Of a stretch of DNA of 64,000 nucleotides, positions 2,182 to 19,908 are shown one piece after another. The stretch's first letter is position 1. Each line of letters starts with the position of its first letter. The notes beneath the pieces were generated by a model that made no database searches, had not been told where the DNA came from, and saw nothing but the letters and a program-made list of their open reading frames with translations. This stretch comes from Candidatus Fimihabitans intestinipullorum (GTDB taxonomy: Bacteria; Bacillota_I; Bacilli_A; RF39; UBA660), in contig DVML01000007.1 of the NCBI GenBank assembly GCA_018714965.1, forward strand, positions 5,323-69,322, in the 5' to 3' direction. The position numbers and the translations under genes are program-made.

Positions 2182-2210
2182 TAAGAAATTTAAAAAATAT
2201 GTGATATAAT
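2182..2210 (+). promoter_or_regulatory. sigma-A-type promoter with extended -10 (TGaTATAAT), weak -35 (TAAGAA)
   Basis: TGATATAAT at 2202-2210; positioned ~45 nt upstream of a small ORF that heads the transfer/pilus gene block. Confidence 0.45.
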
Positions 2211-2256
2211 ATAAAAATAGAGGACGGTATGTCATATTTGAAAGGAGGGTGACAAA

Positions 2257-2382
2257 TTGTGGGATCGATGTGTATTTAAAAATACACCAGTAGGATTATT
2301 ACAGGGAACATTTGTGATAACACCGAATGATCTTGAGCAGATTTGTGACCTTGATGTTGATAATAAGGTGGTGAGAAAGTGA
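2257..2382 (+). CDS. 41-aa small ORF (MWDRCVFKNTPVGLLQGTFVITPNDLEQICDLDVDNKVVRK), TTG start
   Basis: Perfect SD AAGGAGGG with 7-nt spacer to TTG; stop TGA overlaps GTG start of next gene (GTGA coupling); below the 60-aa cutoff of the ORF track. Confidence 0.4.
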   Translation: MWDRCVFKNTPVGLLQGTFVITPNDLEQICDLDVDNKVVRK

Positions 2383-2780
2383 GTAAATCGTTTTGGGGAA
2401 TATTTATTATTGTACTAGGTGTCATTTCAATATTTTTTGTAAACTTCTTTCAGAACATTACAAACGCAGATGAACAAAACTTTAATTTGCTGAAGGAAAC
2501 AACAGAAGCAGCGATGTACGATGCGTTTGATTTTGCATCATATCGTGCATATGGTGCGGTTCGAATCGATCGCGAGAAATTCGTAGAAAATTTTTTAAGA
2601 CGCTTTGCACAAAACGTAAATTTAGGGCATACATATAAAATTCAGATTTACGATGTGAATGAAATGCCGCCAAAAGTTAGTATCAAGGTATCAAGCTCCA
2701 ATACAGCTAATTTTACAGGAGAGACAATCGACTTTGATGTAACGAATAAATTAGATGCGATATTAGAAACGCCATATTAG
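2379..2780 (+). CDS. hypothetical membrane-anchored protein (single N-terminal TM)
   Basis: 133-aa ORF, GTG start preceded by AAGGTGGTGAG RBS; N-terminal hydrophobic helix. Confidence 0.5.
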   Translation: MSKSFWGIFIIVLGVISIFFVNFFQNITNADEQNFNLLKETTEAAMYDAFDFASYRAYGAVRIDREKFVENFLRRFAQNVNLGHTYKIQIYDVNEMPPKVSIKVSSSNTANFTGETIDFDVTNKLDAILETPY

Positions 2781-2795
2781 AATAGGAGAATAAAA

Positions 2796-3644
2796 ATGAA
2801 TAATATAATAGTAACATTTCAAAGATTTTTGAAAAATAAAAATACTGTAACAATTATCGGGGTTGTAGCAGTTATCGGAATTTTATATTGGGGATATAAC
2901 ATGCAGATTAATAATGCAGTTACACCAGTACGTAACATTCCAGTAGCAGTCGATACGATTCAACCAAGAACGAAAATTACAAAAGATATGATTGAATATG
3001 TAGATGTTGCACCTGTTGTGTTAAGTGACAACGTAATCCGTGTAGCATCACAAGTTATTGGAAAATATAGTAACTATAATACTGTAATTCCACAAGGTAG
3101 TATGTTCTATCAAGATACGTTAGTAACAGAGGAAGAATTACCAGATTCAGCATTTACACAAGTAGGTAAAAATGAAGTTGTATATAACTTCCCAGTTACG
3201 ATGGATTCTACATACGGAAACTCAATTTTTCCTGGCAATAAGATTGATATTTATATGAAAGCAACAACAGATGCCGGACAAATCATGGTAGGTAAATTAG
3301 TTGAAAACATTAAAGTATTAGCAGTTAAGGATAAAGATGGACGTCACGTATTTGAAAATACAGAAGAAGCACGTACACCATCAATGTTAATTTTTGGAGT
3401 AGATCCAGAAATCAATATCTTGTTACGTAAAGCAAGTTACATGGATGATTTTGATGTAGAATTATTCCCAGTACCACACGGACAAGAAGTTGATGAAAGT
3501 GGAGAAACACAAGTTAGTACACAATACTTAAAAGACTTCATTAACGCAAATACAGTAGTAATTGATCAATCAACAGATACAAATACAAACACGAATAACA
3601 ATTCAGGAAATAATACAAATACCCAAGAACAAGCAGGTGCATAA
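2796..3644 (+). CDS. Flp/Tad pilus assembly protein CpaB/RcpC-like (SAF domain)
   Basis: N-terminal TM then IPVAVDTIQPRTKITKDMIEYVDVAP...IPQGSM segment matching the CpaB SAF-domain pattern (V.VA..DI..GT.IT.DM....P....P.G); strong RBS. Confidence 0.55.
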   Translation: MNNIIVTFQRFLKNKNTVTIIGVVAVIGILYWGYNMQINNAVTPVRNIPVAVDTIQPRTKITKDMIEYVDVAPVVLSDNVIRVASQVIGKYSNYNTVIPQGSMFYQDTLVTEEELPDSAFTQVGKNEVVYNFPVTMDSTYGNSIFPGNKIDIYMKATTDAGQIMVGKLVENIKVLAVKDKDGRHVFENTEEARTPSMLIFGVDPEINILLRKASYMDDFDVELFPVPHGQEVDESGETQVSTQYLKDFINANTVVIDQSTDTNTNTNNNSGNNTNTQEQAGA

Positions 3645-3645
3645 T

Positions 3646-4935
3646 ATGTTTAATGATGCAATGTTTGCCCAGATTGACTTTGGACCACTAAAAGAATTAT
3701 TGGAAAATGATGATGTAACTGATATTTCTTATAGTAATGGAGGTCAATTATGGTTGAAGACACTATCGCGTGGTATTTTCCGCGTGGAAAACGATGTGGT
3801 CAATGATGCGTTTATGGAAAAACTAGCTTTCCAATGTTCCAACGTTATGGGTAAGACCTTTAACATGGCTCACCCTTTCTTGGATGCGGAGAGTGCAGAA
3901 TTGCGTTTGAATTTCGTACACGATTCTATCGCGAGAAACGGAATCGCCTGCGTAATGCGTAAAACACCAGCGAAAATTCGTTTGGAAAAAGAAAAAATAT
4001 TAGCAGAAAATTATATTACACTTGATGTTCATGACTTCTTAATGAAGGCAATTGAAGGACATTGCAACATAATTGTATGTGGAGAAACTGGTTCTGGTAA
4101 AACAGAGTTTGTCAAATATCTGGCTTCTCATATCAAAGAAAATGAGAAAGTTATTACAATTGAGGATACTTTGGAATTGCACTTGGATCGAATTTTTCCA
4201 CATCGGGATATCGTAGCAATGAAAACAAATAATATTGCTTCTTATTCAGATGTATTAGTAACTTGTATGAGACAGAATCCAAAGTGGATTTTGTTATCTG
4301 AGGTTCGTAGTGCGGAAGCAGTTATGGCTGTACGTAACTCGATTTCATCAGGTCACTATATTTTATCGACGATCCATGCGGATAAAGCAGAGTCTATTCC
4401 GAACCGTATGTACAGTTTGTTGGAAACAAATCAAGATATTGACCAGTTTTTGAAATCTATTTATCGTTATGTTCAATTAGGTGTTTATATTCGTGGATAT
4501 CAAGATAGAGTAACGAAGAGATTTCATCGTGAGATCGCTTCTGTTGTTGAATTTTACGTAACAGAGAATAACGAAGCAAAATATAATGTGATTTATAAAA
4601 AATTAAACGACGGTCATGTCGTAAGACAAAATCCTAGTAAATATTTACTTGAATATTTAGAGGGGCAAGGCGTAGAATTGCCAAAAGATATTATTCGAAC
4701 AGACTTAAATGAAAAAGAAGATAATACAGAGAAAGATGTGGAGAATACCACAACATCTACTGTAACTTCTACTCCGCAAGAACAAGCACAACAAGTATCT
4801 CAAGCAAGTCAATCTGCGGTGCAAAATCAAACGCCAGCTATGCCGGTAGGACAGACAGGTACTCAGCAGAATGCAAGTGCTACTTCTCAAGCGGGAGCAT
4901 TTAATCCGTTTGCAAATGTAAAACCAGTAGAATAA
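3646..4935 (+). CDS. TadA/CpaF-family secretion ATPase (VirB11/PilT superfamily)
   Basis: Walker A GETGSGKTE, Asp box ITIEDTLEL, His box LSTIHAD; start reassigned to ATG 3646 (RBS AGGTG, 7-nt spacer) directly after CpaB-like stop; Q/T/S-rich low-complexity C-terminal tail. Confidence 0.8.
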   Translation: MFNDAMFAQIDFGPLKELLENDDVTDISYSNGGQLWLKTLSRGIFRVENDVVNDAFMEKLAFQCSNVMGKTFNMAHPFLDAESAELRLNFVHDSIARNGIACVMRKTPAKIRLEKEKILAENYITLDVHDFLMKAIEGHCNIIVCGETGSGKTEFVKYLASHIKENEKVITIEDTLELHLDRIFPHRDIVAMKTNNIASYSDVLVTCMRQNPKWILLSEVRSAEAVMAVRNSISSGHYILSTIHADKAESIPNRMYSLLETNQDIDQFLKSIYRYVQLGVYIRGYQDRVTKRFHREIASVVEFYVTENNEAKYNVIYKKLNDGHVVRQNPSKYLLEYLEGQGVELPKDIIRTDLNEKEDNTEKDVENTTTSTVTSTPQEQAQQVSQASQSAVQNQTPAMPVGQTGTQQNASATSQAGAFNPFANVKPVE

Positions 4936-4948
4936 GGAGGGAATCATT

Positions 4949-5851
4949 ATGACGTTTATTATATTTGTAGTTGTTGCTGCAATCCTTATTTTCGTTTATT
5001 CATATCGAAAAAATTCTGGGCAGAACGTATATAAATATATTTCGAAACAAGCAGGTGTCATTTATGAAAAATACGCACCATACTCATTTCGGGAAGTACG
5101 ACAAAAAGTAAAAGATTTAGGACAAGAATATTCGACGAGACAATATGTCATTCAAATCGGTGTATTTGCTGCATCTGCAGCAGTTATTTCTTACCTATAT
5201 TTTTACAATCTGATTATTTCCATTATATATTCATGTTTGTCAGTCCTAGTGATTCCTTATCTGACTTATTTGAGATGTAAGAGATTGTATAGTGAGTTTG
5301 TCTTCGAGCAAATTCAAGTTTATACGACAAATACAATCATGGAATTTGCAACCACTCAATCGTTTGTTAAAGCGTTAGAGGGAGTGTATGAATCAGGAGT
5401 ATTAGAAGACCCTGTAAAGTCTGATGTAAAAATGATGATAGATATGGCTTACGAGAATGGTACAGTTGAACAGTCTATTGAATATATGAATTCTAGATAT
5501 GATTACTATATCGTAAAGAACATGCACCAACTATTCTTACAAATCACCAATGAAGGTGCGAAAGACTCTAGTGATGCACTAGAAAATATGTCTCTTGATA
5601 TCGATATGCTTGTTGAAAACGTATATAGCGATAGAATGGACCGTGCGCAGTTCCACAAAAAGTTTTTACAATTTGGAATTATTCTATATTTGATGGTTAT
5701 GTTAGTGCAGTTTTTGCTAGGAGTAGATACCTATATTCAAATGTTAGATAATATGTTAGTACAATTATTATTACATTTGATTATTATCGTCAATACAGCA
5801 TTCCTATTAAATGGTGAAAAATATTATAATGAGAATGTGGGGGCTGAGTAA
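4949..5851 (+). CDS. TadB-like polytopic membrane platform protein (T2SS-F-like)
   Basis: 300 aa, N- and C-terminal TM helices with cytoplasmic middle, position immediately after TadA-like ATPase; RBS AAGGAGGG. Confidence 0.45.
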   Translation: MTFIIFVVVAAILIFVYSYRKNSGQNVYKYISKQAGVIYEKYAPYSFREVRQKVKDLGQEYSTRQYVIQIGVFAASAAVISYLYFYNLIISIIYSCLSVLVIPYLTYLRCKRLYSEFVFEQIQVYTTNTIMEFATTQSFVKALEGVYESGVLEDPVKSDVKMMIDMAYENGTVEQSIEYMNSRYDYYIVKNMHQLFLQITNEGAKDSSDALENMSLDIDMLVENVYSDRMDRAQFHKKFLQFGIILYLMVMLVQFLLGVDTYIQMLDNMLVQLLLHLIIIVNTAFLLNGEKYYNENVGAE

Positions 5852-6633
5852 TGGAATTTATTTTAATCGCAGTAATTATTATATTTGTATTATCTTATAA
5901 CCATCATATTGACATGCATAAATTTATTGGAGATACGGAACCGTATTTTCGAATTTTAATGGAAGAAGACTATATATTTCTTCTAAGATTAAAGTATGGA
6001 GACAGTATCGATGTCGAAAAAATGTTTGGGATGCGCGTGCGCAATGGGCTCATCGCAACGGCAGCCATGCTTTTCATTTTGATGTCACAGGCAAATTTCT
6101 TAAATGTGTTATTTTCCGTTATCGTTGGATTTGTAGTATTTAAATTGCCTTATCAAAAATTAAAAGGGTATTATAAAGCTAATTTGCATAGAATTAACCA
6201 AATGTTACCATATTATTTGAAGAGTTTGGAGATCTTAGTTCAACACTATACAGTTCCAGTAGCGCTAAATCGTTCTGTTGAAACAGCGCCGGAAATTTTC
6301 CGATCTGGATTAAGAGAAATGATTGCTAAAATTGAAGCGGGAGATTCTAGTGTAGATCCATATATGGATTTCGCAAAAGAATATCCAGTACGTGATTCTA
6401 TGCGTATGATGCGTTTATTATATCGTTTAGGATTAGGATCACAGGAGAATAAGCAAGAGCAACTTATGATGTTTGCGAGAAGTGTATCACAACTTCAAAA
6501 CAAAGCACGTGAGCAAAAATATAAAGAACGTCTTGAGAAAATGGAAAATAAAACAATGATGATGTTGATGACAACAGGTGGAGGAATTTTATTACTCATG
6601 TTATTCTCAATGACAATGATGATGAATTTATAA
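5851..6633 (+). CDS. TadC-like polytopic membrane platform protein
   Basis: 260 aa, similar topology, TAATG stop/start overlap with preceding gene. Confidence 0.45.
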   Translation: MEFILIAVIIIFVLSYNHHIDMHKFIGDTEPYFRILMEEDYIFLLRLKYGDSIDVEKMFGMRVRNGLIATAAMLFILMSQANFLNVLFSVIVGFVVFKLPYQKLKGYYKANLHRINQMLPYYLKSLEILVQHYTVPVALNRSVETAPEIFRSGLREMIAKIEAGDSSVDPYMDFAKEYPVRDSMRMMRLLYRLGLGSQENKQEQLMMFARSVSQLQNKAREQKYKERLEKMENKTMMMLMTTGGGILLLMLFSMTMMMNL

Positions 6634-6704
6634 AATATAGTGTTTATAAAATAAAAAATATATGTTATACTAATAATGGTAGAGGTGTAAGGTGGTGAGA
6701 AAGA

Positions 6705-6881
6705 ATGAAAGAAGCAGCTGGAGAAGCAAACATGACAGTTATTACAATCATTTTGATTGGTATTATCGCAGCAATCGCTTACCCGATGATTAATAACTTA
6801 ATTACAAGTCAACAAGAAAAAGCTGAATGTCTTGATGCGGGTGGAACACCAGAAGAGTGTGGTGCGATCGCTAACCAATAG
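6705..6881 (+). CDS. 58-aa Flp-like prepilin candidate (MKEAAG/EANMTVITIILIGIIAAIAY...)
   Basis: Not in ORF track (<60 aa); RBS GGTGGTGAG; short charged leader ending in Gly followed by ~20 hydrophobic residues and a small Cys-containing tail, in the position of flp within a tad-like gene order. Confidence 0.4.
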   Translation: MKEAAGEANMTVITIILIGIIAAIAYPMINNLITSQQEKAECLDAGGTPEECGAIANQ

Positions 6882-6908
6882 TAAAAATAATAATGGAGGA
6901 ATAGAATT

Positions 6909-7331
6909 ATGAGAGAAGGTTTAGGAAATGTATTTATGTACAATATCATCATTCTTTTCCTCGTGTTAATGGTGGTATTTTTGGTTGGTACCATTAGTTA
7001 TAATAAGGCATTTAGAGTCAATAGTAGAATTATCAATGCGATCGAGAAATACGAAGGATACAATGGCCCTGCGTATGAAGAAATCGATCGCACTTTGGCT
7101 ATTATAGGATACCGCCGTGAGGGAGCTGTTGATTGCCCAACAAGAGACGGTGTTAGAGCCATGACGAATTTCACAGGTAAATATCAGTACTGTGTGTATG
7201 AATTTAAAATCAATGACAAATTTTACAATTACGGAGTTTTAACATATATTGATTTTGATTTGCCGGTTGCAGGAAAAGTAAAATTGCCGATTTATTCTAA
7301 AACCGATCAAATATATCAATTTCAAAGGTAA
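6909..7331 (+). CDS. TadE-like minor pilin/pseudopilin candidate, paralog A
   Basis: 140 aa; MREGLG/NVF... short leader then a single hydrophobic helix; shares GN...VG..SY.KA..V...IINAIE..EG...GYR...CP...YCV...YFD.P pattern with next gene. Confidence 0.4.
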   Translation: MREGLGNVFMYNIIILFLVLMVVFLVGTISYNKAFRVNSRIINAIEKYEGYNGPAYEEIDRTLAIIGYRREGAVDCPTRDGVRAMTNFTGKYQYCVYEFKINDKFYNYGVLTYIDFDLPVAGKVKLPIYSKTDQIYQFQR

Positions 7332-7346
7332 TAACGAGGTGATGAG

Positions 7347-7784
7347 ATGAATCAAGCGGTAGGTAATACGGCGATTGTCAATGTTGTTGTCGTATTTGTG
7401 ATTATCATTAGTGGGCTATTCGTCGGATCACTAAGCTATTCGAAAGCATATAAAGTAAAAAATATTATTATTAATGCAATAGAAGAACACGAGGGATTTG
7501 ATGAAGAAACAAAAGCTGAAATAGAAGAAACTTTGACTGAAATGGGATATCGTATTAATCGAAATGGTCAACAAAAATGTCCAAATCCAACAGTAGATGG
7601 TACGGTCGAAGCCTTAAATACAGCTAGTAATCATCATTATTGTGTTTGGAGAGTCAAAGAGACGAGGGGAACTTACTACATAGCAACAGCTTATATGTAT
7701 TTTGATATCCCACTTGTCGATGGATTTGAGGCACCTGTAACTGGTCATACCAAAACAATTTATAATGATGAAGCTCACGATTAA
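7347..7784 (+). CDS. TadE-like minor pilin/pseudopilin candidate, paralog B (tandem duplicate)
   Basis: 145 aa; MNQAVG/NTAIVN...; clear paralogy with 6909..7331. Confidence 0.4.
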   Translation: MNQAVGNTAIVNVVVVFVIIISGLFVGSLSYSKAYKVKNIIINAIEEHEGFDEETKAEIEETLTEMGYRINRNGQQKCPNPTVDGTVEALNTASNHHYCVWRVKETRGTYYIATAYMYFDIPLVDGFEAPVTGHTKTIYNDEAHD

Positions 7785-7804
7785 ATAGAGGAGATGGTGG
7801 ATCA

Positions 7805-8821
7805 ATGAATGTTATTGTAGCGAATCGATATCAATCATTACTACAAGGGCTTAATATTGATATCATTAAACAGATGGTTGGAGAGTTTGAAGTAGATGAT
7901 ATTATATCAACTTTTCAAAATTTCTTTTACCAAAGAATGATTTTAGATATTACAGCCATCAAAAACTATAAAGATGTTAAGACGTTACAAAAACTATCGA
8001 TATCTTTAGATATGGATAAAGTTATTTTGCTATTAGATGATTCACCGGAAAGTACATCACCGGATTATATCTCTAAACTGGTATCGATGGGAATTTATAA
8101 TTTTACAAAAAACGCAGAAGGTATAATGTATCTCTATAATAATCCAAATTCTTATCGAGATGTGGCACAATACCAGCAGTTGGATGTTGTAACTCCTATC
8201 GTTCAAGGGCAAGATGGAGCTTCAGTAAATCAAACAGGGTTGATGCAACCGGAACATGGGCGTATTATTGGCGTTAAAAACGTGACGGATGATTCTGGTG
8301 CGACAACTTTGATTTATATGATGAAAAAACAATTAGAAAAAAACTATTCTGTTGTTGCGATAGAAGTAGATAAGAGAGACTTTATGTTCTTTAGAGAAAA
8401 GGGATTGGTTAGTACGAATACTCAGGGAATAGGAAATGAAGTTTCAAAGTACAGTAATAAGGATGTCATATTGATTGATATTAATAGAAGTGCAAGTGCA
8501 GAAAGCCTTTGTACAGAAGTGTTTTACCTAATAGAGCCATCTATCATTAAATTGAATAAACTCATGATGACTGATGGAAAAGTATTGCAAAAATTAAAAG
8601 GGAAAAAAGTTATTTTAAATCAAAGTTTACTAAGTTCAAAAGATGTGTTAGATTTTGAGTATGAATCTAAAATTAAAATTTTTTATAACATGCCACCTTT
8701 AAACGAGAGAGAAGCAAATATTCAGGTTTTGAATTCTTTCTTAACGAAAGCGGGATTTACACGTCAAGCTGGAGGAGAACAAGAAAAAAAGAGTAAACTA
8801 CTAGGAATTTTTAATATATAA
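7805..8821 (+). CDS. hypothetical cytoplasmic protein; possibly a degenerate TadZ/CpaE-like assembly factor
   Basis: 338 aa soluble protein in tad-like block; no intact Walker A (only GVKNVTDDSGATTL); assignment by position only. Confidence 0.2.
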   Translation: MNVIVANRYQSLLQGLNIDIIKQMVGEFEVDDIISTFQNFFYQRMILDITAIKNYKDVKTLQKLSISLDMDKVILLLDDSPESTSPDYISKLVSMGIYNFTKNAEGIMYLYNNPNSYRDVAQYQQLDVVTPIVQGQDGASVNQTGLMQPEHGRIIGVKNVTDDSGATTLIYMMKKQLEKNYSVVAIEVDKRDFMFFREKGLVSTNTQGIGNEVSKYSNKDVILIDINRSASAESLCTEVFYLIEPSIIKLNKLMMTDGKVLQKLKGKKVILNQSLLSSKDVLDFEYESKIKIFYNMPPLNEREANIQVLNSFLTKAGFTRQAGGEQEKKSKLLGIFNI

Positions 8822-8823
8822 AA

Positions 8824-8852
8824 TTGACATTTCTATGAAATTCTTATATAAT
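8824..8852 (+). promoter_or_regulatory. consensus sigma-A promoter TTGACA-N17-TATAAT
   Basis: TTGACA at 8824-8829, TATAAT at 8847-8852, exactly 17-nt spacer; 23 nt upstream of RBS AAGGGAGG of the first VirB2-like gene. Confidence 0.7.
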
Positions 8853-8875
8853 TATTATAACAAGGGAGGTAACAT

Positions 8876-9202
8876 ATGTTTACATTAGTAAGTCCAGATG
8901 CAATTTGTGGAGGTATCACAATTCCAGGATCTATCGTAAGTATTATCAATATGGTAATCTTAGTTATTCAAATTGCAATTCCTATCATCTTAATCGTCAT
9001 GGGGATGTTAGATTTAGGAAAAGCTGTTATGGCTGGAAAAGAAGATGAAATTAAAAAGAACCAAACGTTATTCTTTAAACGTGTAATAGCAGCAGTTATG
9101 GTATTTTTAATTATTGCAGTTGTTAAATTAGTATTTGGAGTATTAGCAGATGCTAGTGGAGACAATACAGCAGTAGATTGTATCAGCAAAATTATTGGAT
9201 AA
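8876..9202 (+). CDS. VirB2/TrbC-like two-helix small membrane protein (T4SS pilin candidate), paralog 1
   Basis: 108 aa; helix1 (IPIILIVMGML) - charged loop (DLGKAVMAGKEDEIKKNQTLFFKR) - helix2 (VIAAVMVFLIIAVVKLV), C-terminal Cys; architecture of T4SS pilins. Confidence 0.4.
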   Translation: MFTLVSPDAICGGITIPGSIVSIINMVILVIQIAIPIILIVMGMLDLGKAVMAGKEDEIKKNQTLFFKRVIAAVMVFLIIAVVKLVFGVLADASGDNTAVDCISKIIG

Positions 9203-9225
9203 AACAAGAGTATTCTTGTTTTTTT
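9203..9225 (+). terminator. rho-independent terminator (probably attenuating)
   Basis: AACAAGA-gtat-TCTTGTT hairpin followed by TTTTTTT directly after paralog 1 stop. Confidence 0.6.
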
Positions 9226-9292
9226 GTGCCATAAAACTTGGAAAGGGGAAACGAATATGGTATACTTATATATGTAAAGATGGTGAAATAAT

Positions 9293-10063
9293 ATGAATTT
9301 AAAAAAATATATGAGAGATCTTATCGTACTAGCTTTTATATGCATGTGTATATCTCCTGTGAATGTACTCGCTGTTTGGGCAGGAGCACCACCGACTCCT
9401 ACAACTACGCCGACTCCTGGCACAAGTACGGAAAAGCAAGAGACATACGCAGAATGTCAACAAACACACCAGGGAAATTCTGGTTCTATGTGTCAAAAAG
9501 AAGCACAGGAAGCAGCGAAAGAAATAGAAAACAACAAAAAAATACAAGAAGGTAGTGGGTATGGAGAATGTAAAAAGGATTTGTCATATTTGCCAGAAAA
9601 TTCACAAGCTCTATATTGTGGAAAATATCAGAACACAACAGCTGAAGAATATGAAGAGATGACAGGAAAGAATGAAGCGAAAGCAGAAAATACATCAAAT
9701 AGCGGTCCGTCCTTAGAAGAAACATCATATAATATTCCATCTACGACTTGTGGTGGGTCTATTGAACTTCCTTTAGCACTTGCAACGATAACTTCAAATG
9801 CGGTTAATTTAGGAAAAATTGTTGTCCCAATTATTTTGATTATTATGGGGATGATTGACTTTTTTAAAGCAACAGCGGCAAGTGATGCAGATGCTACTTC
9901 TAAAGCCGGTAAAAAATTGACAAGACGTATTGTTGCGGCAATTGCAGCGATGTTGATCGTAACTTTGGTACAGTTTATCTTTAGTAATTTTGGAACAGCT
10001 ACAGGAAAGACGAGTGTAACGAGTTGTATAGATTGTTTTATTAATGGTAATTGTGGTGTATAA
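9293..10063 (+). CDS. secreted Cys-rich protein fused to a C-terminal VirB2-like two-helix module (paralog 2)
   Basis: Signal peptide (MNLKKYMRDLIVLAFICMCISPVNVLA), Thr/Pro linker, Cys-containing ~130-aa domain, then VPIILIIMGMIDFFKATAASDADATSKAGKKLTRRIVAAIAAMLIVTLV matching the paralog 1/3 motif. Confidence 0.4.
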   Translation: MNLKKYMRDLIVLAFICMCISPVNVLAVWAGAPPTPTTTPTPGTSTEKQETYAECQQTHQGNSGSMCQKEAQEAAKEIENNKKIQEGSGYGECKKDLSYLPENSQALYCGKYQNTTAEEYEEMTGKNEAKAENTSNSGPSLEETSYNIPSTTCGGSIELPLALATITSNAVNLGKIVVPIILIIMGMIDFFKATAASDADATSKAGKKLTRRIVAAIAAMLIVTLVQFIFSNFGTATGKTSVTSCIDCFINGNCGV

Positions 10064-10109
10064 ACTATGGAAAAGTGACAATAAACATATTTATTATTGT
10101 CCTTTTTTG

Positions 10110-10118
10110 TGTTATAAT
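10110..10118 (+). promoter_or_regulatory. possible extended -10 element (TGtTATAAT) upstream of paralog 3
   Basis: TGTTATAAT in intergenic region 10064-10149; no good -35. Confidence 0.3.
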
Positions 10119-10149
10119 GAAATTACTATTATGGGTAAGTGGGGATATT

Positions 10150-12506: not shown

Positions 12507-12526
12507 AAAAAGGGGGTTAAAAGGAT

Positions 12527-12841
12527 ATGAATGGATTTTTAATACCAGCAAACTCAAAGAAATCATTGTATATTTTTGGACTATTTACAACCAACGAGCT
12601 GATTATGTTTGCTGCTGGAGTGGGATTGACGTTGATTTTCTTAATTGCATTCCCGCTCAATAATATATGGTTCTCGATCTTGGCATTGATGCCAGGCTTA
12701 ATCACTGGTCTATTGGTACTTCCAGTACCTCATTATCACAATGTTATGACTTTTTTAAAGGAAATGTATTTATTTTATACAGAACGTCAAAAATTTGTTT
12801 GGAAAGGATGGTGTTTCTTAGATGGCAGCGACAAAGAGTAA
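12527..12841 (+). CDS. VirB3/PrgI/TcpE-like small two-TM protein
   Basis: 104 aa, two hydrophobic helices, directly upstream of the VirB4-like ATPase; RBS AAAGGGGG. Confidence 0.45.
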   Translation: MNGFLIPANSKKSLYIFGLFTTNELIMFAAGVGLTLIFLIAFPLNNIWFSILALMPGLITGLLVLPVPHYHNVMTFLKEMYLFYTERQKFVWKGWCFLDGSDKE

Positions 12842-13367
12842 ATATACAGAGGAAAGTTTTGTTCCTGTTAAAAATATTACAAATGGAATGATTATTCTAG
12901 ATAATAACGAAAAAGTAACAGGTGTTAAAATAATGCCTCGTAATATTTTTATTCTGGAGTATGATATGCAATCAGCAATTATCAATAATCTAAAGAACGT
13001 TTATAATATGATCGATTATGAATTTTGGATCATTGCAGCAGACCGTCCGGTCGATATCAATGTATATTTATCACAATTACAACTTTTATATAATTCCATT
13101 CAAAGTCCAATCAAAAGAAAGTTGATTATCGAGGATATTAATAAAGCAAATAGTTTCATGAACAATAACATTGTAGATACAGAGTATTTCTTATTGTTTA
13201 GAGAACGTGATGATGATAAAATTCAAAAGAGAATTCGTACTTTGATTACACAGTTTGGAAATGCAGGATTATCTTCACATCAAACGACAAATGAGGATTT
13301 GAGAATTATTTTGGATAACTTCTTAAATGGTGGAGTTACAACGACGTTTGGGACGGTGATGTCATAA
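12822..13367 (+). CDS. 181-aa soluble protein translationally coupled to VirB4-like ATPase; either the separately encoded VirB4 N-terminal part or an accessory transfer protein
   Basis: Stop TAA overlaps downstream ATG (TAATG); combined length 181+594=775 aa matches a full-size VirB4. Confidence 0.4.
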   Translation: MAATKSKYTEESFVPVKNITNGMIILDNNEKVTGVKIMPRNIFILEYDMQSAIINNLKNVYNMIDYEFWIIAADRPVDINVYLSQLQLLYNSIQSPIKRKLIIEDINKANSFMNNNIVDTEYFLLFRERDDDKIQKRIRTLITQFGNAGLSSHQTTNEDLRIILDNFLNGGVTTTFGTVMS

Positions 13368-15151
13368 TGAATATTAAGAGTCAATTAGCGCCAAAAGGAT
13401 TAGAATTTAAACCAAGTGAATTTATCATCAGTGATAAGTATGCTACGATTATGACCGTGATTTCTTATCCGAAATTTATTAACCCGGGATTTTTAGCAAA
13501 CTTAACAAGTTTATCCGGAATTAAGGTAGTTATTAAACATATTCCTATGCCATTTAGTGTCATTAGTAAGATGCTAAATAAAGAGATTGCTGATTTGAAA
13601 CAGCGATATCAAGAGGAAAATGATAAGACGATTCAGGAGAGAATTCGTCAGGATTATGAATCATTAGAAGTTTTTATTCAGATGCTTGCATCAAGTCAGT
13701 CCAAGATTTATGACTTTCAATTACACATTATGATAACTGCCAATTCTGAAGAAGAGTTGATTGCGAAAAAGTTACAAGTTAGAAGTTATTTGGAAGCGAT
13801 GGAGTTACGTGCAGTACCACTTCGATTTGAACAAGAAAAAGTATTAAAATCTATTTTACCTATTTATCCAAAACAAGATATAGAAGATCGAATTGGGACT
13901 CCGATTCCATCTCCAACGATTGCTGCGATGTACCCATTTATTTTTGATAGTATTAAAGACCCAGGATTGTCAACATTACTTGGAGTTGATTTCTCAGGTG
14001 GAGTTATTCTGTTTAATCAGTTTTTATATCAAATCAAAAAAGAACATAATCGTAATAATGCAAATATGATTATTTTAGGTACTTCTGGTAGTGGTAAATC
14101 AACAGCAGCTAAAGTAATGTTACGTAGTCACTTTAGAAATAATAGTCAAGTCATTATGATAGACCCTGAAGGCGAATTAGAGGAAATGGCAAGATTATAT
14201 GGTGGAGATTTCATCGACCTTGGAAAAGGTGGAGAATATGGAATGATCAATCCACTAGAAATTGTTATGGATGCGGATGAAGATGAGATTAAACAGGGAT
14301 TGGGATATACTGTATTAACAAGAACACTCCAAACTTTAAAGGCATTCATTAAATATTACGATCCAAGTATTACAGAGGACGTTATTACTTTATTTAGTGA
14401 GGTTGTACAAGAAACATATAAGCGATTTGGAATTGATTTCAATACAGATTTTTCTAGATATACATCAAAAGATTATCCTATCTTTAAAGATGTATATGCC
14501 ACGATTTATGGAAAATTGAAGTCAATGCCTGAAAAAACACATGAACGTGACATTCTTGAACAATTGGAATTAAAGATTAGACCAATCGTTAAGGAATTAC
14601 GTTATTATTTCGATGGGCATACGACAATTAAGCCAAAGAGTGAGTTTATCGTATTTAATATTAAGGAATTGATGAATGCGGATGTGAATATTCGTAATGC
14701 GTTATTCTTTAATATCTTGAAATACGCATGGGGAATGACGTTAAATAAAAGCGTTAATACGATATTATCCGTGGATGAGGCTCATGTATTGTTAAGCGGA
14801 AATAATACATTAGGTGCTGATTTCTTGGCGCAAATTCAAAGACGTGCGCGTAAGTATAACACGGGAACAATTATTATTACACAACAACCGAGTGATTTTA
14901 GTGATAATGCAGTTATCACGCAGGGAAAAGCGATTTTTGATAACGCTTCTTACTACTTAGTTATGGGACTAAAAAAACAAGCAGTAGAAGATTTGGCTCG
15001 TTTAATCGATTTGAACGACAACGAGAAAGAGAGTATTAAAGGTTATAATCAGGGAGAAGCATTATTTGTATGTGGTAGTCGTCGTATGCAAATCAATGTT
15101 ATCGTATCAGAACAAGAATTAGATTCATTTGGTTCAGGAGGAGGATTATAA
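13367..15151 (+). CDS. VirB4/PrgJ/TcpF-family conjugative ATPase
   Basis: Walker A GTSGSGKST, downstream VDEAH Walker B-like motif, N-terminal motif resembling the N-terminal signature of Gram-positive VirB4 homologs; 594 aa. Confidence 0.8.
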   Translation: MNIKSQLAPKGLEFKPSEFIISDKYATIMTVISYPKFINPGFLANLTSLSGIKVVIKHIPMPFSVISKMLNKEIADLKQRYQEENDKTIQERIRQDYESLEVFIQMLASSQSKIYDFQLHIMITANSEEELIAKKLQVRSYLEAMELRAVPLRFEQEKVLKSILPIYPKQDIEDRIGTPIPSPTIAAMYPFIFDSIKDPGLSTLLGVDFSGGVILFNQFLYQIKKEHNRNNANMIILGTSGSGKSTAAKVMLRSHFRNNSQVIMIDPEGELEEMARLYGGDFIDLGKGGEYGMINPLEIVMDADEDEIKQGLGYTVLTRTLQTLKAFIKYYDPSITEDVITLFSEVVQETYKRFGIDFNTDFSRYTSKDYPIFKDVYATIYGKLKSMPEKTHERDILEQLELKIRPIVKELRYYFDGHTTIKPKSEFIVFNIKELMNADVNIRNALFFNILKYAWGMTLNKSVNTILSVDEAHVLLSGNNTLGADFLAQIQRRARKYNTGTIIITQQPSDFSDNAVITQGKAIFDNASYYLVMGLKKQAVEDLARLIDLNDNEKESIKGYNQGEALFVCGSRRMQINVIVSEQELDSFGSGGGL

Positions 15152-15177
15152 TCACACATTAGTATGGTGGTGATGAC

Positions 15178-17004
15178 ATGCATTTTTTAGCCGGATTGGG
15201 AAAGAAATTATTAGTTGACAAGGCAAAAAAGAAAATTGCTGGTAAAGCGAGAGGCGATTTGCCAACACTTAAGGCCCCTTTACTTATGATTGGTGGATTA
15301 CTTGCAGGATTAGGATTGTTTCCAATAATCCTAATCCTTTTAATGGTGGCTGTGGTATGTTATGTCATATTTGCCCCAATTGAAGGTGCTGTCAATTTCG
15401 TAAAAGGAATAGCAAATGCAGTTGGAGATTTTTTCCAAAGCGTTGGGAACTTCTTTGTTTATGGAAGTTTTGCTAATGACAAGACAACTTACTATAATGA
15501 ATTAAAGAAACATTATGATCATTGGAAAGGCGAGGGAGTTATCTTAGATGTAGCATGGATTGCTTCGGCTACTAATTATGCTAGATTAGCGGATTTAAAT
15601 GACAGTGGTGAATGTACGCCTGAAGTTGATGCTGATGGAAATGTAACTCAATGTGGAGAAGAAACAGACTATGGACAGATGACTGGAGAAGTCAAAGAAT
15701 TAGTCGAAGGAATGGTAACTTCTGCTGATGGCAGGTCGCTTCGAAAATCCGATGATGAATATAAGGCTTGGATGTTAGATGAAAATTCTGGAAAATCATG
15801 GATCGAAAGGCATATGGAACAAGTAGATGCAGATATTCCATCAAATCCAGAGAAGAAAAAAGATTTCTTAGAAGATGCTGTAGAGCAAATTTTTCAGATG
15901 AAAGAAGCTTATAATGAAATTGCTCAAATGATGAAAACATCATCAACATGTGGAAGTTACGAGGAAATAAAATTATGTGATACGAAAAGCCGTGGGTTTA
16001 CTGGAGGTTATGCAAATCAACCTTGGGTAAGTGGAAGTTATCAACATACTTTTTGGAACTGTGATAAAGGAACATGTTCTGCAAATACGACACTTCCATT
16101 AGGAAAAAACGAATATGGAACACTAGAAGTTGATGAGCTTGGTTTTACATATATGGAAATAGGTGGAACTAAGTTCTATACGGCTGCAGTTGGATCTTAT
16201 TATTTCGATGATCCATCTGAAGCGATAGGTACGAGATATCGTATTACGACAGATGCTGGAAATGTATATCATATTATTTTAGCCGATGTTCTTGCGGATC
16301 AAGATGCCAAAAAGGGAAATAATGATTCTAGTCCATATTGTTTAACGCAAGCGAATACATTTGGTGATATGTATTTTGATCGTGTATATATGCAAACGCA
16401 TAGTCCTGAAACTTATAATTTATTTATGAGTGATGGAACGAACAATCATGACTTCGATGAAAATCATAAATTTAGTGGTACAATTGTTAAAATTGAGAGA
16501 ATGACAGGTTCTTCAGATTGTACAGGAGACTTTGGATTTACTGGTGAAGTAGATGATCCAATTATTGAGGATTCTGCAGTTTCCAAAGATTATTCTTTAT
16601 TTAGTGGAAATGGAAATCCATTTGAAGTACCTCAGTGTACATGGTTTGCGTGGGCAAGATTTTATCAAGTCTATGGATATGACAGTGGTGCACGTGGTAA
16701 TGGTGAAGCAAATGCGAGAGAGATTGTAGCAGCAAATCCTGGCAAATTCCAAATGAGTGATACTCCGGCTCCAGGAGCAGTGTTTAGTATTCCACCATAT
16801 GGAGGATCAGGAATCACAGAATATGGACACGTAGGATTTATAGAAGCATTTGATGGAGAAAGTATCTGGATTTCAGAGGGTAATGTTAAATTATCTGGAT
16901 ATGGTTCTGGAAATATGTGGTTTCATAAAGAAAATTGGGCGTCTTATAAAGCTCGTTATCCGGGTATTGAGTTTGCGGTTCCAGTAAATGCAAAGAAAAA
17001 ATAG
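15178..17004 (+). CDS. membrane-anchored cell-wall hydrolase with C-terminal CHAP domain (PrgK/VirB1-like role)
   Basis: N-terminal TM; C-terminal CTWFAW...GHVGFIE Cys/His arrangement typical of CHAP amidase/peptidase domains; ~300-aa central Cys-containing domain of unknown type. Confidence 0.65.
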   Translation: MHFLAGLGKKLLVDKAKKKIAGKARGDLPTLKAPLLMIGGLLAGLGLFPIILILLMVAVVCYVIFAPIEGAVNFVKGIANAVGDFFQSVGNFFVYGSFANDKTTYYNELKKHYDHWKGEGVILDVAWIASATNYARLADLNDSGECTPEVDADGNVTQCGEETDYGQMTGEVKELVEGMVTSADGRSLRKSDDEYKAWMLDENSGKSWIERHMEQVDADIPSNPEKKKDFLEDAVEQIFQMKEAYNEIAQMMKTSSTCGSYEEIKLCDTKSRGFTGGYANQPWVSGSYQHTFWNCDKGTCSANTTLPLGKNEYGTLEVDELGFTYMEIGGTKFYTAAVGSYYFDDPSEAIGTRYRITTDAGNVYHIILADVLADQDAKKGNNDSSPYCLTQANTFGDMYFDRVYMQTHSPETYNLFMSDGTNNHDFDENHKFSGTIVKIERMTGSSDCTGDFGFTGEVDDPIIEDSAVSKDYSLFSGNGNPFEVPQCTWFAWARFYQVYGYDSGARGNGEANAREIVAANPGKFQMSDTPAPGAVFSIPPYGGSGITEYGHVGFIEAFDGESIWISEGNVKLSGYGSGNMWFHKENWASYKARYPGIEFAVPVNAKKK

Positions 17005-17016
17005 AGGAGGTTTAGC

Positions 17017-17454
17017 ATGGTGAAAAGTTCTAATAAACATACAGGTATGTTAGCCGTAGGATGTATTGTGATATGGGGAGTATTCTTATATTTTACTTTT
17101 CATCAGCCAGTCTCTAAGGATCCTGTTTTTGAAGTCTATTCAAATATCAATAAAGTTTATCAAAATTTTGAAATTGATTATTTATCCTATGTAAAAACCG
17201 CAACAGATTATGAGGGAAATGATTTAAAAGATCACACTCATATTACGTATACGCCTATAGACAATACTAAGTTAGGTACTTATAATGTAGAATATACTTT
17301 GACGGATGATCATAATCGTTCTGTTACGAGGACAGTAAGAATTAAAATTGAAGCGTATCCAGGAGCAAGTAATGTATCAACTGATCCAGGAGCGAGTTAT
17401 ATATCAGAGGAAGAATTAAGAGATAAGATAAATGGAACACAAGGAGGCATGTAG
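17017..17454 (+). CDS. small membrane-anchored protein with Ig-like (DUF5011-like) domain
   Basis: N-terminal TM; GTYNVEYTLTDDHNRSVTRTVRIKI beta-sandwich-like signature. Confidence 0.4.
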   Translation: MVKSSNKHTGMLAVGCIVIWGVFLYFTFHQPVSKDPVFEVYSNINKVYQNFEIDYLSYVKTATDYEGNDLKDHTHITYTPIDNTKLGTYNVEYTLTDDHNRSVTRTVRIKIEAYPGASNVSTDPGASYISEEELRDKINGTQGGM

Positions 17455-17456
17455 AT

Positions 17457-19880
17457 ATGAAATTGAAATTTAGAGCAGATTCAAAAGATATTACGATATT
17501 TTGTATTTTCTGTGTAGCACTTTTATATTTTGTTGCGATTGCAATATTAAATGTTGTAGAGTTTATCGAGTCATCAACGTTGTGGGGATTTAACCCGATC
17601 CCTGCGTTTACGGAATATTTTTTTCCAACGATGGTTTTATATTTAATATGTTTGATATTGATTATTGCAAGTGTTTCTTCTTATTTCTTTGATAGAGAAA
17701 AAGGAATCGGAGTACAGGCTGGGAAAAAAGATAAAGGCGGATATTCTAGATGGGCAAAAGAAAAGGAATTACAAGCTCAAAAGGAAATTAAAAAAGTAAA
17801 CCCTGCCGACGATGAGATTCCATATGCCGGAGTTCCTCTGATTAATAAAGGAAAAGAAATATGGGTGGATGATGGGGAATATCATAACTTAATTATCGGA
17901 GCAACCGGAAGTGGTAAAACTCAGATCATGGTTAACCCATTAGTAAAATTACTTGCAAAACATGGTGAATCTATGATTGTAACCGACCCTAAAGGAGAAA
18001 TTTACGAGGAAAATGCTAATTTATTACGTGAAAAAGGTTATAACATTGTCGTTTTAAACTTCCGTGATCCGTTGAAAGGAAATTCATGGAACCCAATGAC
18101 GTTGCCTTATAATCTATATAAAAGCGGAAATCAAGATAAGGCAATCGAGTTAATCGATGACTTGGCAGCTAACATACTATATGATGATAATTCTAAAAAT
18201 CAGGATCCTTTCTGGGAAAAGACATCAGCTGACTACTTTGCTGGATTATCTTTAGCTTTGTTTGAAGATGCAAAAGAAGAAGAGATCAATTTGAATAGTA
18301 TCAGTTTGATGGTCAATATTGGAGAGGAGAAGTTAGCTGGCTCTACTTATATCAAGGAATATTTTAGCGATAAAGATCCAAGTGGAGCAGCTTATACGAA
18401 TGCCTCAGGAACATTAATTGCACCGAGTGAAACAAAGGGGAGTATCTTATCTGTATTTAAGCAAAAGATAAAATTGTTTGCATCTCGTGAAAATTTATCT
18501 GAGATGTTAAGCCATAGTGATTTTGATATTAAAGATATCGGTCGTCAAAAGACAGCTGTTTTTATCATTGTACAAGATGAGAAGACGACATATCACTCAC
18601 TCGTAACGATCTTCTTGAAACAAACGTATGAAACATTAATCGATGTAGCACAAGAAAATGGTGGGAAACTACAATATCGTACAAATTTCATTTTGGACGA
18701 GTTTGCCAACATGCCACCATTAAAAGATGTCACGACGATGATTACTGCATCCCGTTCTAGAAGAATGCGCTTTAACTTTATCATTCAGAACTTTGCTCAA
18801 TTGTATCAAGTATATGGAAAAGAAAACGGTGAGACGATCAAGGGTAACTGTGGTAACATTATTTATCTTATCAGTAGTGAGTTGGCAGCGTTGGAAGAAA
18901 TCAGCAAAATGTGTGGTGAAGTAAAATCTAAAGAAAAGGATAAAACAGCGAGCACCCCACTTGTTACAGTCAGTGACTTGCAACGTTTACAGCAGTTTGA
19001 AACAATTATTTTACGTTTACGTACAATGCCATTTAAGACAAAATTAACACCCAATTTTAAGATGATTCAAAATGGATTCTGGGGAAAGGAATATCCAAAA
19101 GCAGATTATCCTATTAGAGAACGTAAAAAAGTTCAAGTGTTCGATATTAAAAAATTTGTGGATGAAAAGCGTAAGAAAAAGATGGAAGAAATGTTTGGAC
19201 CTTCTGCAGGTAAAGGCCCAATGCCATCTCGTCCAATGACTTCACGCCCAATGCCAGGTGGAATGCCATCTCGTCCAATGACACCACCAATGGGACCTAC
19301 ACCACCGACAGGTGATTTTAACGTCGATGAGATCGTAAAGAGAATTGATGCGAAGATTGCGGAATTGGAAGAGGAAGAACGTAAAGAAAAAGAAGAAATG
19401 GAGAAAAAGAGAAAGCAGGAAGAAGAGAGACGGATTAGAGAGGCAATGGAGGCCAAAAGAAAAGAAAAGCAAGAACAGCAGAGAGCAGAAACGCAACAAA
19501 TACGACCGAAGCCTCCGGTTCCAGAAACTCCAATTCCGAAGGTACCACCACGCCCAATTGTAGAGGAGAAGAAAACTGCTCAAACGGTAGTACCAACGCC
19601 ATCTAAAGTAGCACCATCACCAGTTCCACCACGTCCAGAGGTGAAACATGATGTGAAACCACAACCAAACATAGTACCTCCAAAAGGAAAGGAAGAAGCA
19701 GTATTCTCTGCTCCTATCTATGGAGATACAGATTTTCCAAAACCATCGGTTCCTACCCCTGAGAGAAAGGGTATAACAGAACTACCGCAGAAGCCACAAA
19801 TGGAACCAAGAGTGATCACACCTGCAGTAACGGATGATCAGTTCTTTGATGACTTCTTCAGTGACGATGACGATGAGTAA
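17457..19880 (+). CDS. VirD4/TraG/PcfC-family type IV coupling protein with long disordered C-terminal extension
   Basis: Two N-terminal TM helices; Walker A GATGSGKTQ; TraG-like core to ~residue 570; C-terminus has PSRPM repeats, EK-rich stretch, Pro-rich stretch and acidic tail DDQFFDDFFSDDDDE. Confidence 0.8.
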   Translation: MKLKFRADSKDITIFCIFCVALLYFVAIAILNVVEFIESSTLWGFNPIPAFTEYFFPTMVLYLICLILIIASVSSYFFDREKGIGVQAGKKDKGGYSRWAKEKELQAQKEIKKVNPADDEIPYAGVPLINKGKEIWVDDGEYHNLIIGATGSGKTQIMVNPLVKLLAKHGESMIVTDPKGEIYEENANLLREKGYNIVVLNFRDPLKGNSWNPMTLPYNLYKSGNQDKAIELIDDLAANILYDDNSKNQDPFWEKTSADYFAGLSLALFEDAKEEEINLNSISLMVNIGEEKLAGSTYIKEYFSDKDPSGAAYTNASGTLIAPSETKGSILSVFKQKIKLFASRENLSEMLSHSDFDIKDIGRQKTAVFIIVQDEKTTYHSLVTIFLKQTYETLIDVAQENGGKLQYRTNFILDEFANMPPLKDVTTMITASRSRRMRFNFIIQNFAQLYQVYGKENGETIKGNCGNIIYLISSELAALEEISKMCGEVKSKEKDKTASTPLVTVSDLQRLQQFETIILRLRTMPFKTKLTPNFKMIQNGFWGKEYPKADYPIRERKKVQVFDIKKFVDEKRKKKMEEMFGPSAGKGPMPSRPMTSRPMPGGMPSRPMTPPMGPTPPTGDFNVDEIVKRIDAKIAELEEEERKEKEEMEKKRKQEEERRIREAMEAKRKEKQEQQRAETQQIRPKPPVPETPIPKVPPRPIVEEKKTAQTVVPTPSKVAPSPVPPRPEVKHDVKPQPNIVPPKGKEEAVFSAPIYGDTDFPKPSVPTPERKGITELPQKPQMEPRVITPAVTDDQFFDDFFSDDDDE

Positions 19881-19908
19881 ATCTAGAAAAAATCTAGATT
19901 TTCTTTTT
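19880..19908 (+). terminator. rho-independent terminator closing the transfer/pilus block
   Basis: AATCTAGA-aaaaa-TCTAGATT hairpin followed by TTCTTTTT. Confidence 0.65.

Follow-up and report, generated by a model that had tools for sequence, protein, structure and literature searches.

A Tad-like type IV filament module joined to a monoderm type IV secretion system in a locus of RF39-type gut Bacilli

Can a Gram-positive genome carry a pilus-type assembly machine and a type IV secretion system (T4SS) as parts of one locus, and is such a locus a mobile element, a new chimera or a resident of the chromosome? The question is raised by a gene block in a stretch of 64,000 nucleotides from Candidatus Fimihabitans intestinipullorum (contig DVML01000007.1, positions 5,323 to 69,322; hereafter the window). 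All genes of this pilus and T4SS block lie on the + strand at 2379-19880, tightly packed and in part overlapping, and open reading frame (ORF) analysis bore out the co-orientation, order and packing reported in a preliminary description of the sequence. A 2025 review states that Gram-positive T4SSs universally lack VirB11 homologues, and a 2025 paper that Gram-positive T4SS classes lack pilin genes; the locus and its plasmid relatives contradict both statements by placing a module of ATPase, platform and pilin-like proteins inside Gram-positive T4SSs. The evidence supports a type IV filament (Tad-like) module joined to a monoderm T4SS. Taken as a whole, the best explanation is probably that the first module (2379-8821) is a divergent type IV filament assembly system of Tad/archaeal design, that the second (8876-19880) is a monoderm T4SS of the type found in pLS20, CD1110-CD1115 and the Mycoplasma integrative and conjugative element (ICE), and that the locus is a chromosomal counterpart of the pLS20-family and pZB18-type transfer apparatus, with the same pilus-like module carried by pAW63.

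The filament module opens with a DUF5411 protein (2379-2780, +; Pfam DUF5411 E 7.5e-54), which has an N-terminal membrane helix, corresponds to pLS20 gene 36 and is 67-69% identical in related species. It is followed by a CpaB/RcpC-like protein (2796-3644, +), whose earlier assignment is carried by matches below threshold, to TIGR03177 (E 1.6e-8, 34 bits, cutoff 71) and to RcpC (E 1e-5, 25.9 bits, cutoff 28.8); in L087, a locus from a distant lineage, a homologue at 30% identity has a precomputed Pfam RcpC match. The third gene (3646-4935, +) encodes a secretion/pilus ATPase of the PilB/TadA/FlaI/VirB11 superfamily (Pfam T2SSE E 5.8e-27), 63-84% identical across species; its ORF opens at 3562, and the start is probably the ATG at 3646. 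All four motifs are present, namely Walker A (GETGSGKT), Asp box, Walker B and His box, including the stretches ITIEDTLEL and STIHAD. The preliminary description named this protein TadA/CpaF, and the superfamily and motifs stand, while the subfamily models are nearly tied. In a PDB search, FlaI (71.8 bits), CpaF (68.3) and HP0525 VirB11 (65.1) lie close together, with archaeal GspE also within 65-72 bits, and the NCBIfam models for VirB11, TadA-like, TrbB and FlaI proteins score alike, each far below its cutoff, the top match being VirB11 TIGR02788 (E 1.9e-32).

Two membrane proteins adjoin the ATPase: a single-domain TadB-like protein (4949-5851, +) and its TadC-like paralogue (5851-6633, +), whose families align with each other in HHalign (86.7%, E 4e-6, 228 columns). 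Neither matches T2SSF; Pfam, NCBIfam and PDB searches were empty even when distant family members were included, and an exhaustive profile search of 1.84 billion representatives returned 292 relatives of the platform proteins and no bridge to T2SSF. AlphaFold was run on the TadB-like protein only. With a shallow alignment of sequences at least 76% identical, the predicted local distance difference test (pLDDT) score was 48.3, and with a 15-sequence alignment that included distant members it reached 78.6. The resulting model has the GspF/PilC fold, and EpsF and OutF were its only high-probability Foldseek matches, with E-values that are not significant. The TadB-like protein also shows weak HHalign similarity to alphaproteobacterial TadB (24.7%, E 8e-4; controls at most 1.5%), and its family aligns with pLS20 p38 at 95.9% probability; the TadC-like protein aligns with pLS20 p39 at 36.9%. 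The modelled fold and the paralogy provide good evidence that these proteins form the platform of a type IV filament, divided between two half-size proteins as in Tad. The two single-domain T2SSF platform proteins typical of Tad are therefore recognised here by fold, and the earlier TadB/TadC labels hold in that sense, with no T2SSF match at the sequence level.

Three small genes come next, encoding a 58-amino-acid (58-aa) pilin-like protein (6705-6881, +), pilin-like protein 1 (6909-7331, +) and its paralogue pilin-like protein 2 (7347-7784, +), the latter pair being about 140 aa each and aligning at 100% in HHalign. All three begin with M-K/R-E-x-x-G, a common short leader that comes before a hydrophobic helix. 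The leader is conserved as M(K/R)E(G/A)xG in pilin-like protein 1; in the 58-aa protein it reads MKEAAG and precedes E and about 22 hydrophobic residues, with the N-terminus MKEAAGEAN(M/L)TV almost invariant in the 28 species listed. The resemblance to pilins is confined to these N-termini, and the Flp-like and TadE-like labels of the preliminary description found no profile support. The 58-aa protein has neither an Flp profile match nor likeness to Flp references, and its MKEAAG leader followed by EANMTV departs from the G/XXXXEY motif, with no E at +5 and no Y at +6. Against TadE references the pilin-like families reach at most 1.2% in HHalign, with no TadE profile match, the reference alignments being small. 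Additionally, no Peptidase_A24 prepilin peptidase was found by Pfam in the scanned window ORFs, in agreement with the earlier account, or in the called genes of the comparison loci L085-L089. With no prepilin peptidase found and with noncanonical leaders, fibre production is therefore no more than putative.

Two side observations touch on these genes. At 41341-41757 (+), well away from the block, there is a single canonical gene for a type IV pilin or pseudopilin with the N-terminal methylation motif (Pfam N_methyl E 4.9e-9), which presumably implies a PilD/ComC-type prepilin peptidase somewhere in the genome. One related species has a YfhO-family glycosyltransferase gene as an insertion between its TadC-like and pilin genes (L085, 11849-14329; L086, 11853-14333), split in one of these two assemblies, and the window has its own YfhO gene at 32759-35272; the insertion may hint at glycosylation of pilins or of the wall.

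The module closes with a conserved 338-aa protein (p338; 7805-8821, +), which is 50-70% identical across species. Profile searches of Pfam, NCBIfam and PDB gave no match, and every one of its 7379 homologues is named hypothetical. A TadZ-like identity was considered and is unsupported by sequence, since HHalign of the family against CpaE gave 0.2%, from a small reference alignment, and no TadZ profile matched. The protein co-diverges with VirB4 (Mantel r=0.81, in the test described below) and is kept beside the VirB6-like gene in L087, which links it, in sequence comparisons, to both halves of the block.

The second module begins with three VirB2-like two-helix proteins, designated a (8876-9202, +), b (9293-10063, +) and c (10051-10521, +), which align as one family with two invariant cysteines. 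In the family alignment C11, G43, D46 and C102 are invariant. Protein b has an N-terminal extension and matches T4SS_pilin at residues 163-229 (E 0.0028); the translation of protein c contains an internal Met followed by a signal-like segment, and translation may really begin at the internal ATG near 10150. Members of the family match T4SS_pilin more often than any other Pfam family, in 13 of 30 cases and below cutoffs, so that the VirB2-like label given earlier keeps a weak basis. The same holds for the VirB6-like polytopic protein (10539-12506, +), which occupies a conserved position and matches TrbL_4 (E 2.6e-4) and pLS20_p028 (E 1.1e-4) below cutoff, and for the VirB3/PrgI-like protein (12527-12841, +), which matches Pfam PrgI below cutoff (E 1e-3) and is 46-64% identical across species. 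Although below cutoffs, the T4SS_pilin, VirB6 and PrgI matches agree throughout the family.

The VirB4 ATPase is firmly identified, with one correction to the preliminary description: the protein is split. Its 594-aa body (13367-15151, +) matches positions 294-891 of NF045975, the Mycoplasma ICE VirB4 model (E 1.5e-108), as well as the CD1110 family (E 7e-53), and the Pfam TraG P-loop and AAA_10 families above gathering scores. A previously unlisted 181-aa ORF (12822-13367, +) matches positions 99-276 of the same model (E 1.7e-14) and is therefore taken as the separate N-terminal domain of VirB4; its counterpart in a related species carries a precomputed Pfam TraC-like match.

A 608-aa CHAP cell-wall hydrolase (15178-17004, +; CHAP E 6.4e-15) occupies a variable slot between VirB4 and VirD4, which is always filled by a wall hydrolase: M23, C39+NlpC/P60, glucosaminidase+CHAP or SpoIID+CHAP in other species. 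The slot (15178-17454 in the window; about 11800-17300 in loci L005, L019 and L024) also gains and loses proteins of about 240 aa. Within it lies a small membrane-anchored Ig-like protein (17017-17454, +), which has weak Ig-domain matches only and no homologue in the other loci. The block ends with a VirD4 coupling protein (17457-19880, +; PF02534 E 1.6e-55), 50-78% identical across species and with intact Walker A and B motifs, which scores 294.7 bits against the CD1115-family model NF045973 (cutoff 250). Its C-terminus (19187-19880) is a Pro/Lys/Glu-rich, disordered-looking tail of about 230-260 aa with an acidic end, terminating in FFDDFFSDDDDE. The hydrolase and the coupling protein are as first described. 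Both the VirB4 and the VirD4-type coupling protein of a monoderm conjugative T4SS are thus present, and we take the class to be MPF_FATA-like; no VirB8-like protein was identified in the block. HHalign of the TadE-, Flp-, VirB2- and PrgI-like families and of the 181-aa family against individual pLS20 or proteobacterial sequences was without signal, the references probably being too small.

Is this pairing of modules without precedent? The preliminary description held that firmicute T4SS operons have no VirB11-class ATPase and no Tad-like module, and proposed, as one of its two readings, an undescribed chimeric system. Neither view survives comparison with the pLS20 family and with pZB18, whose arrangement is homologous. 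In tblastn, the plasmid genes that match the ATPase best bear the name 'CpaF/VirB11 family' and come from Bacillus, Enterococcus, Listeria and Lactococcus, and the closest annotated relatives of the T4SS parts are all on plasmids and ICEs. A pLS20-family plasmid encodes, in order, a 126-aa protein, the ATPase, proteins of 267 and 245 aa and small proteins, and then VirD4 (CD1115 family), pLS20_p028, DUF5592, a 192-aa protein, VirB4 and a hydrolase; the Enterococcus faecium vanA plasmid pZB18 has the same order and an annotated TrbC/VirB2 protein. Within the pLS20 family, p36 matches DUF5411 (E 1.4e-5) and p45 matches T4SS_pilin above the gathering score. The accessible text on pAW63 gives CDS23-22(VirB11)-21(278 aa)-20(250 aa)-19(121 aa), and mentions homologues of VirB4 and VirD4, an ATPase-centred module that further contradicts the VirB11-less premise.

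Common to the pLS20 family, pZB18, pAW63 and the window are, in this order, a DUF5411-like protein, a T2SSE ATPase, two membrane proteins of about 240-280 aa and small single-helix proteins. In the pLS20 family and pZB18 these are followed by VirB2-like, CD1115-family VirD4, VirB6-like, VirB3 and VirB4 proteins, with a hydrolase annotated in the pLS20-family plasmid. The window holds counterparts of the pLS20-family set of p36-p39, small proteins, CD1115-type VirD4 and, by a match at E 1.1e-4 only, p028-type VirB6, which denotes shared architecture and not membership of that plasmid family. The paper on the pLS20 family regards gene 37 as a putative VirB11 and genes 36 and 38-45 as unknown, and reports that pilus homologues are absent; pilus-like structures are shown in the pBV71 paper, which speaks loosely of a 'type IV pilus'. 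A limited literature search found no paper identifying platform proteins in pLS20-type operons, and a search for RF39 together with secretion, pili or conjugation gave nothing relevant.

Whether the block is a passenger or a resident of its genome was addressed through its spread. A scan of one genome per species with VirB4 as query confirmed relatives in at least 564 species-level genomes, and the best 80 of these are 79-88% identical over the full length. In those loci (about 80) the gene order is conserved: ATPase, TadB, TadC, pilin, two pilin-like genes, p338, VirB2-like genes, VirB6, PrgI, the VirB4 N-terminal domain, VirB4, hydrolase slot and VirD4. Dozens of species also keep the genes for rhodanese, RmuC and DUF2238 downstream, and RmuC adjoins the block in nearly all loci. 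Simple correlations of identity to the window were too compressed, and a Mantel test on pairwise-identity matrices was used instead. Block genes against flanks, and half against half, gave r of 0.55-0.82 (p=0.001), including 0.67 for VirB4 against RmuC, 0.69 for VirB4 against rhodanese and 0.82 for TadB against VirD4. The last value, together with the synteny in about 80 species, upholds the earlier view that the halves belong together. VirB4 has a higher mean pairwise identity (82%) than RmuC (73%), and also exceeds rhodanese, the other flanking gene compared. In two complete 1.5-Mb chromosomes from metagenome-assembled genomes (MAGs), the locus lies about 80-130 kb from the start of the record, near one end of the chromosome.

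The surroundings are equally those of a chromosome. The G+C content of the window is low (30-41% per 2-kb window) with no step at the block edges, and the GC skew climbs steadily. Housekeeping genes in the window include a GerA/B/C germination operon and the genes for an aminoacyl-tRNA synthetase, a PBP5-type carboxypeptidase, a ClpC-like ATPase, MutY and UDG; these genes, a cluster of 14 tRNA genes (28462-31197) and a T-box leader (39686-39890) upstream of a class II aminoacyl-tRNA synthetase gene (39922-41313) identify the DNA as chromosomal. No relaxase or integrase was found in the Pfam-scanned window ORFs (about 90 aa or longer outside the block), as previously reported, or among the precomputed Pfam matches in L085-L089. 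Neither being found nearby, and the lineage having fixed the locus, we read it as a domesticated conjugation-type system and not as a mobile element. We consider it fairly likely that RF39-type gut Bacilli inherit the block vertically, as a two-module envelope machine encoded on the chromosome. The proteins of the window share 100% identity with proteins from MAGs of Candidatus Fimihabitans intestinipullorum, which NCBI places in Mycoplasmatota incertae sedis; we take it, together with the MAGs named 'Acholeplasma sp. CAG:878', 'uncultured Tenericutes' and 'uncultured Bacilli', to represent the GTDB order RF39.

How far the two modules depend on each other can be seen in more distant loci. L088 and L089, from an Erysipelotrichaceae MAG and another contig, carry clusters of CpaB, ATPase, TadB, TadC and small-protein genes whose platform proteins are distant relatives; no T4SS gene was detected nearby, both contigs being short, and one of the two has a weak DUF5411 protein. 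This pattern argues for a self-contained filament module. In L087 (9209-14539), genes for CpaB(RcpC), TadB, TadC and p338 stand immediately before a VirB6-like gene, ATPase and pilin genes are absent, and a few kb upstream there are genes for ribosomal proteins. Judged by gene content, the modules are separable but linked.

Transcription signals within the block had been described as one promoter near 2182, serving all genes, and one strong terminator. A promoter-like extended -10 element, TGaTATAAT, was read from the sequence upstream of the block at about 2204-2212 (+), and transcription from a single promoter proved too simple a picture, because conserved internal promoters exist. A promoter-like site with a TG-extended -10 was found by sequence scan before the pilin gene (6643-6671, +); the loci shown have TGnTATAAT elements at this junction, where 35 of 37 loci reach at least 9/12. 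At the junction of the halves, between p338 and the first VirB2-like gene, lies a consensus sigma-70-type promoter, TTGACA-17-TATAAT (8824-8852, +; 12/12 match), and the score there is at least 11/12 in 37 of 43 loci versus 1.5% of shuffles. The co-oriented block would accordingly have at least three promoters, with read-through possible. After VirD4, a terminator-like hairpin with a T-run (19881-19908, +) is present and recurs in several other loci; it is not strong, its 8-bp AT-rich stem having two G-C pairs, and it was missed by a strict scan. A 41-codon ORF (2257-2382, +) that has a strong Shine-Dalgarno sequence follows the element at 2204-2212 and overlaps the DUF5411 start; it could encode a leader peptide or a small regulator.

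What might such a machine do? The filament module would make or power a fibre on the cell surface by which cells come into contact in the liquid contents of the gut, the hydrolase would open the wall, and VirB4, VirB6 and VirB3 would form a channel into which VirD4 feeds a selected substrate, DNA or protein, for delivery to the neighbouring cell. By analogy, the role is likely to be contact-dependent transfer by a domesticated conjugation-type machine; the contact role is plausible because pLS20 transfer is liquid-dependent and the R64 thin pilus serves mating in liquid. A bolder form of this proposal, which we hold tentatively and think rather improbable, makes the filament module and the T4SS one integrated nanomachine, indispensable to RF39-type bacteria, in which a Tad-like motor and platform replace VirB11 and drive a fibre for the exchange of DNA, proteins or nutrients between cells. 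Several findings weigh against a filament module beside a domesticated T4SS. Sequence does not separate the ATPase as TadA/FlaI from VirB11, the TadB- and TadC-like proteins are recognised without a T2SSF sequence match and from one modelled member with its 15-sequence alignment, and the pilin-like leaders fit neither the Flp G/XXXXEY nor the type IV G|FTLxE motif, with no prepilin peptidase found in the regions scanned. The searches for a relaxase covered the window and L085-L089, and the gene may be encoded elsewhere. In L087, moreover, CpaB, TadB, TadC and p338 stand directly beside a VirB6-like gene without ATPase or pilin genes, so these four proteins could be T4SS accessories that work with the channel.

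In an unlikely alternative, a single machine works without a pilus: the ATPase serves the T4SS as its VirB11, as the literature on pLS20 regards gene 37 and as its best NCBIfam match, TIGR02788, would have it, and the membrane, CpaB-like and small proteins are accessories of the T4SS in the inner membrane and wall that polymerise no filament. The absence of a detected prepilin peptidase and of a canonical prepilin motif fits this account, as does L087. VirB11 systems come without GspF-fold partners, however, whereas here the modelled partner has that fold and belongs to a paralogous pair like TadB and TadC; the CpaB-like matches, the three small proteins with one short leader and a hydrophobic helix, the occurrence of the module in L088 and L089 with no T4SS gene detected nearby, and the conserved promoter before the pilin gene also speak for a filament module. 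Quite unlikely is a device for the import of DNA or other material, from the medium or out of neighbouring cells, comparable to Helicobacter ComB or archaeal Ced and serving nucleotide salvage or recombination in a reduced genome. The chromosomal, lineage-wide locus with no relaxase found, weak NCBIfam matches to CedD and CedB, the parallel in Patescibacteria and the adjacent RmuC would suit it, although that adjacency may be plain core synteny. The locus encodes a complete VirD4 with intact Walker motifs and 50-78% identity, unlike ComB, which according to a review is without VirD4, and its nearest relatives are export-type conjugation systems.

The element proposed in the preliminary description, larger than the window, defective or mobilised in trans, would be an ICE or integrated plasmid with relaxase, integrase and ends beyond the window. 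The closest annotated relatives of every T4SS part do lie on plasmids and ICEs, and a relaxase-free window fits a larger element, yet we judge this very unlikely and reject a mobile ICE: dozens of species have the same genes downstream and a related one has the same upstream neighbour, hundreds of species carry the locus, the block co-diverges with RmuC and rhodanese and its VirB4 is more conserved than either, G+C does not step at the edges, and megablast of the block against 72,556 plasmids found no match and hence no near-identical DNA. A SpoIIIA-like channel, which the germination operon in the window might bring to mind, is extremely improbable and was likewise rejected. SpoIIIAB has, as we take it, been described as having a GspF-like fold. 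No block protein has a SpoIIIA-family match in Pfam, VirB4, VirD4 and VirB2 are present, and the gene sizes and order differ from those of spoIIIAA-AH. The homologous module also occurs on plasmids of Enterococcus, which to our knowledge does not sporulate.

The remaining features of the window concern its setting. Directly upstream of the block, a 537-aa protein (546-2159, +) with several N-terminal membrane helices has no family match; a 36%-identical homologue of it, like DUF5411, is found in the same neighbourhood in another species, and the protein may belong to the system. One further tRNA gene lies outside the cluster, at 36661-36734. Sizeable ORFs without any Pfam match are found at 23721-25037 (-), 25134-26705, 26789-27700, 29619-30776 and 57722-59068. 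The germination operon (GerA, GerAC and spore permease; 46538-50409, -) stands in a genome that NCBI files under Mycoplasmatota and suggests that the lineage forms spores.

The locus bears on both the biology of this lineage and the understanding of Gram-positive conjugation. Most useful here are the fold-level evidence that the 'VirB11' of such systems comes with platform and pilin-like proteins, and a whole gut lineage in which the system is fixed in the core genome. Retention of the machine in the core genome of hundreds of uncultured gut species, together with a VirB4 conserved above the two flanking genes compared, suggests that transfer between cells is central to the life of these bacteria, in a way comparable to the T4SS of Patescibacteria. 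If the integrated nanomachine were true, it would point to a partner-dependent lifestyle in a major uncultured lineage of the human and animal gut, and Gram-positive plasmids of the pLS20 type would conjugate with a true pilus. Donor mutants of pLS20 have been studied and its transfer depends on fluid conditions, so mating-pair formation in liquid by this module is directly testable.

Among known systems, the filament module resembles Tad/Flp (type IVc) in having one ATPase gene before a pair of single-domain platform genes, a CpaB-like protein matched below threshold, and a small pilin gene before paralogous pilin-like genes, with an ATPase about equally close to CpaF and to others. It differs in having no Flp G/XXXXEY motif, no TadE or TadZ profile match, no TadV in the locus, and platform proteins recognised by fold only. 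As far as sequence can tell, strict membership of Tad therefore fails, on the Flp motif, on TadV and on the TadZ and TadE profiles. For the T4SS half, the Mycoplasma ICE supplies the best NCBIfam VirB4 match (Mbov_0397 family; 363.8 bits, below the cutoff of 590), and the N-terminal part of that model matches the separate 181-aa protein of the window. We know of no T2SSE ATPase or platform module in Mycoplasma ICEs.

Type IV pilus machinery alongside a conjugative T4SS is also found in R64 (IncI; a thin pilus with a Dot/Icm-like T4SS) and in the PAPI-1 island, where, according to a review, the pilus promotes or is required for mating, in R64 in liquid. Both differ from the window locus in their Gram-negative type IVb pili with secretins, in the separate clusters on mobile elements and in the lack of sequence kinship. 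The T4SS of Patescibacteria is reported to be monoderm and MPF_FATA-related, with VirB2-like pilins, chromosomal, widespread, mostly relaxase-less and often near the replication origin. Like the window locus, it is a chromosomal, monoderm system of a reduced-genome lineage, although of a different phylum; the accessible text of that paper makes no mention of a Tad module, and its one mention of VirB11 concerns a rare cluster of Gram-negative type. The plasmids of the pLS20 family and pZB18 remain the nearest systems, at about 22-33% protein identity. They are mobile, with a relaxase and quorum-sensing control, whereas the window locus is chromosomal and lineage-fixed, with no relaxase found nearby; VirD4 precedes VirB6 in the plasmids and is the last gene in the window locus, and VirB3 is a DUF5592 protein in the plasmids and a PrgI match in the window. 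The chimera is real, yet it is a chromosomal, lineage-wide variant of an existing and under-annotated class of Gram-positive transfer systems, and not a categorically new one.

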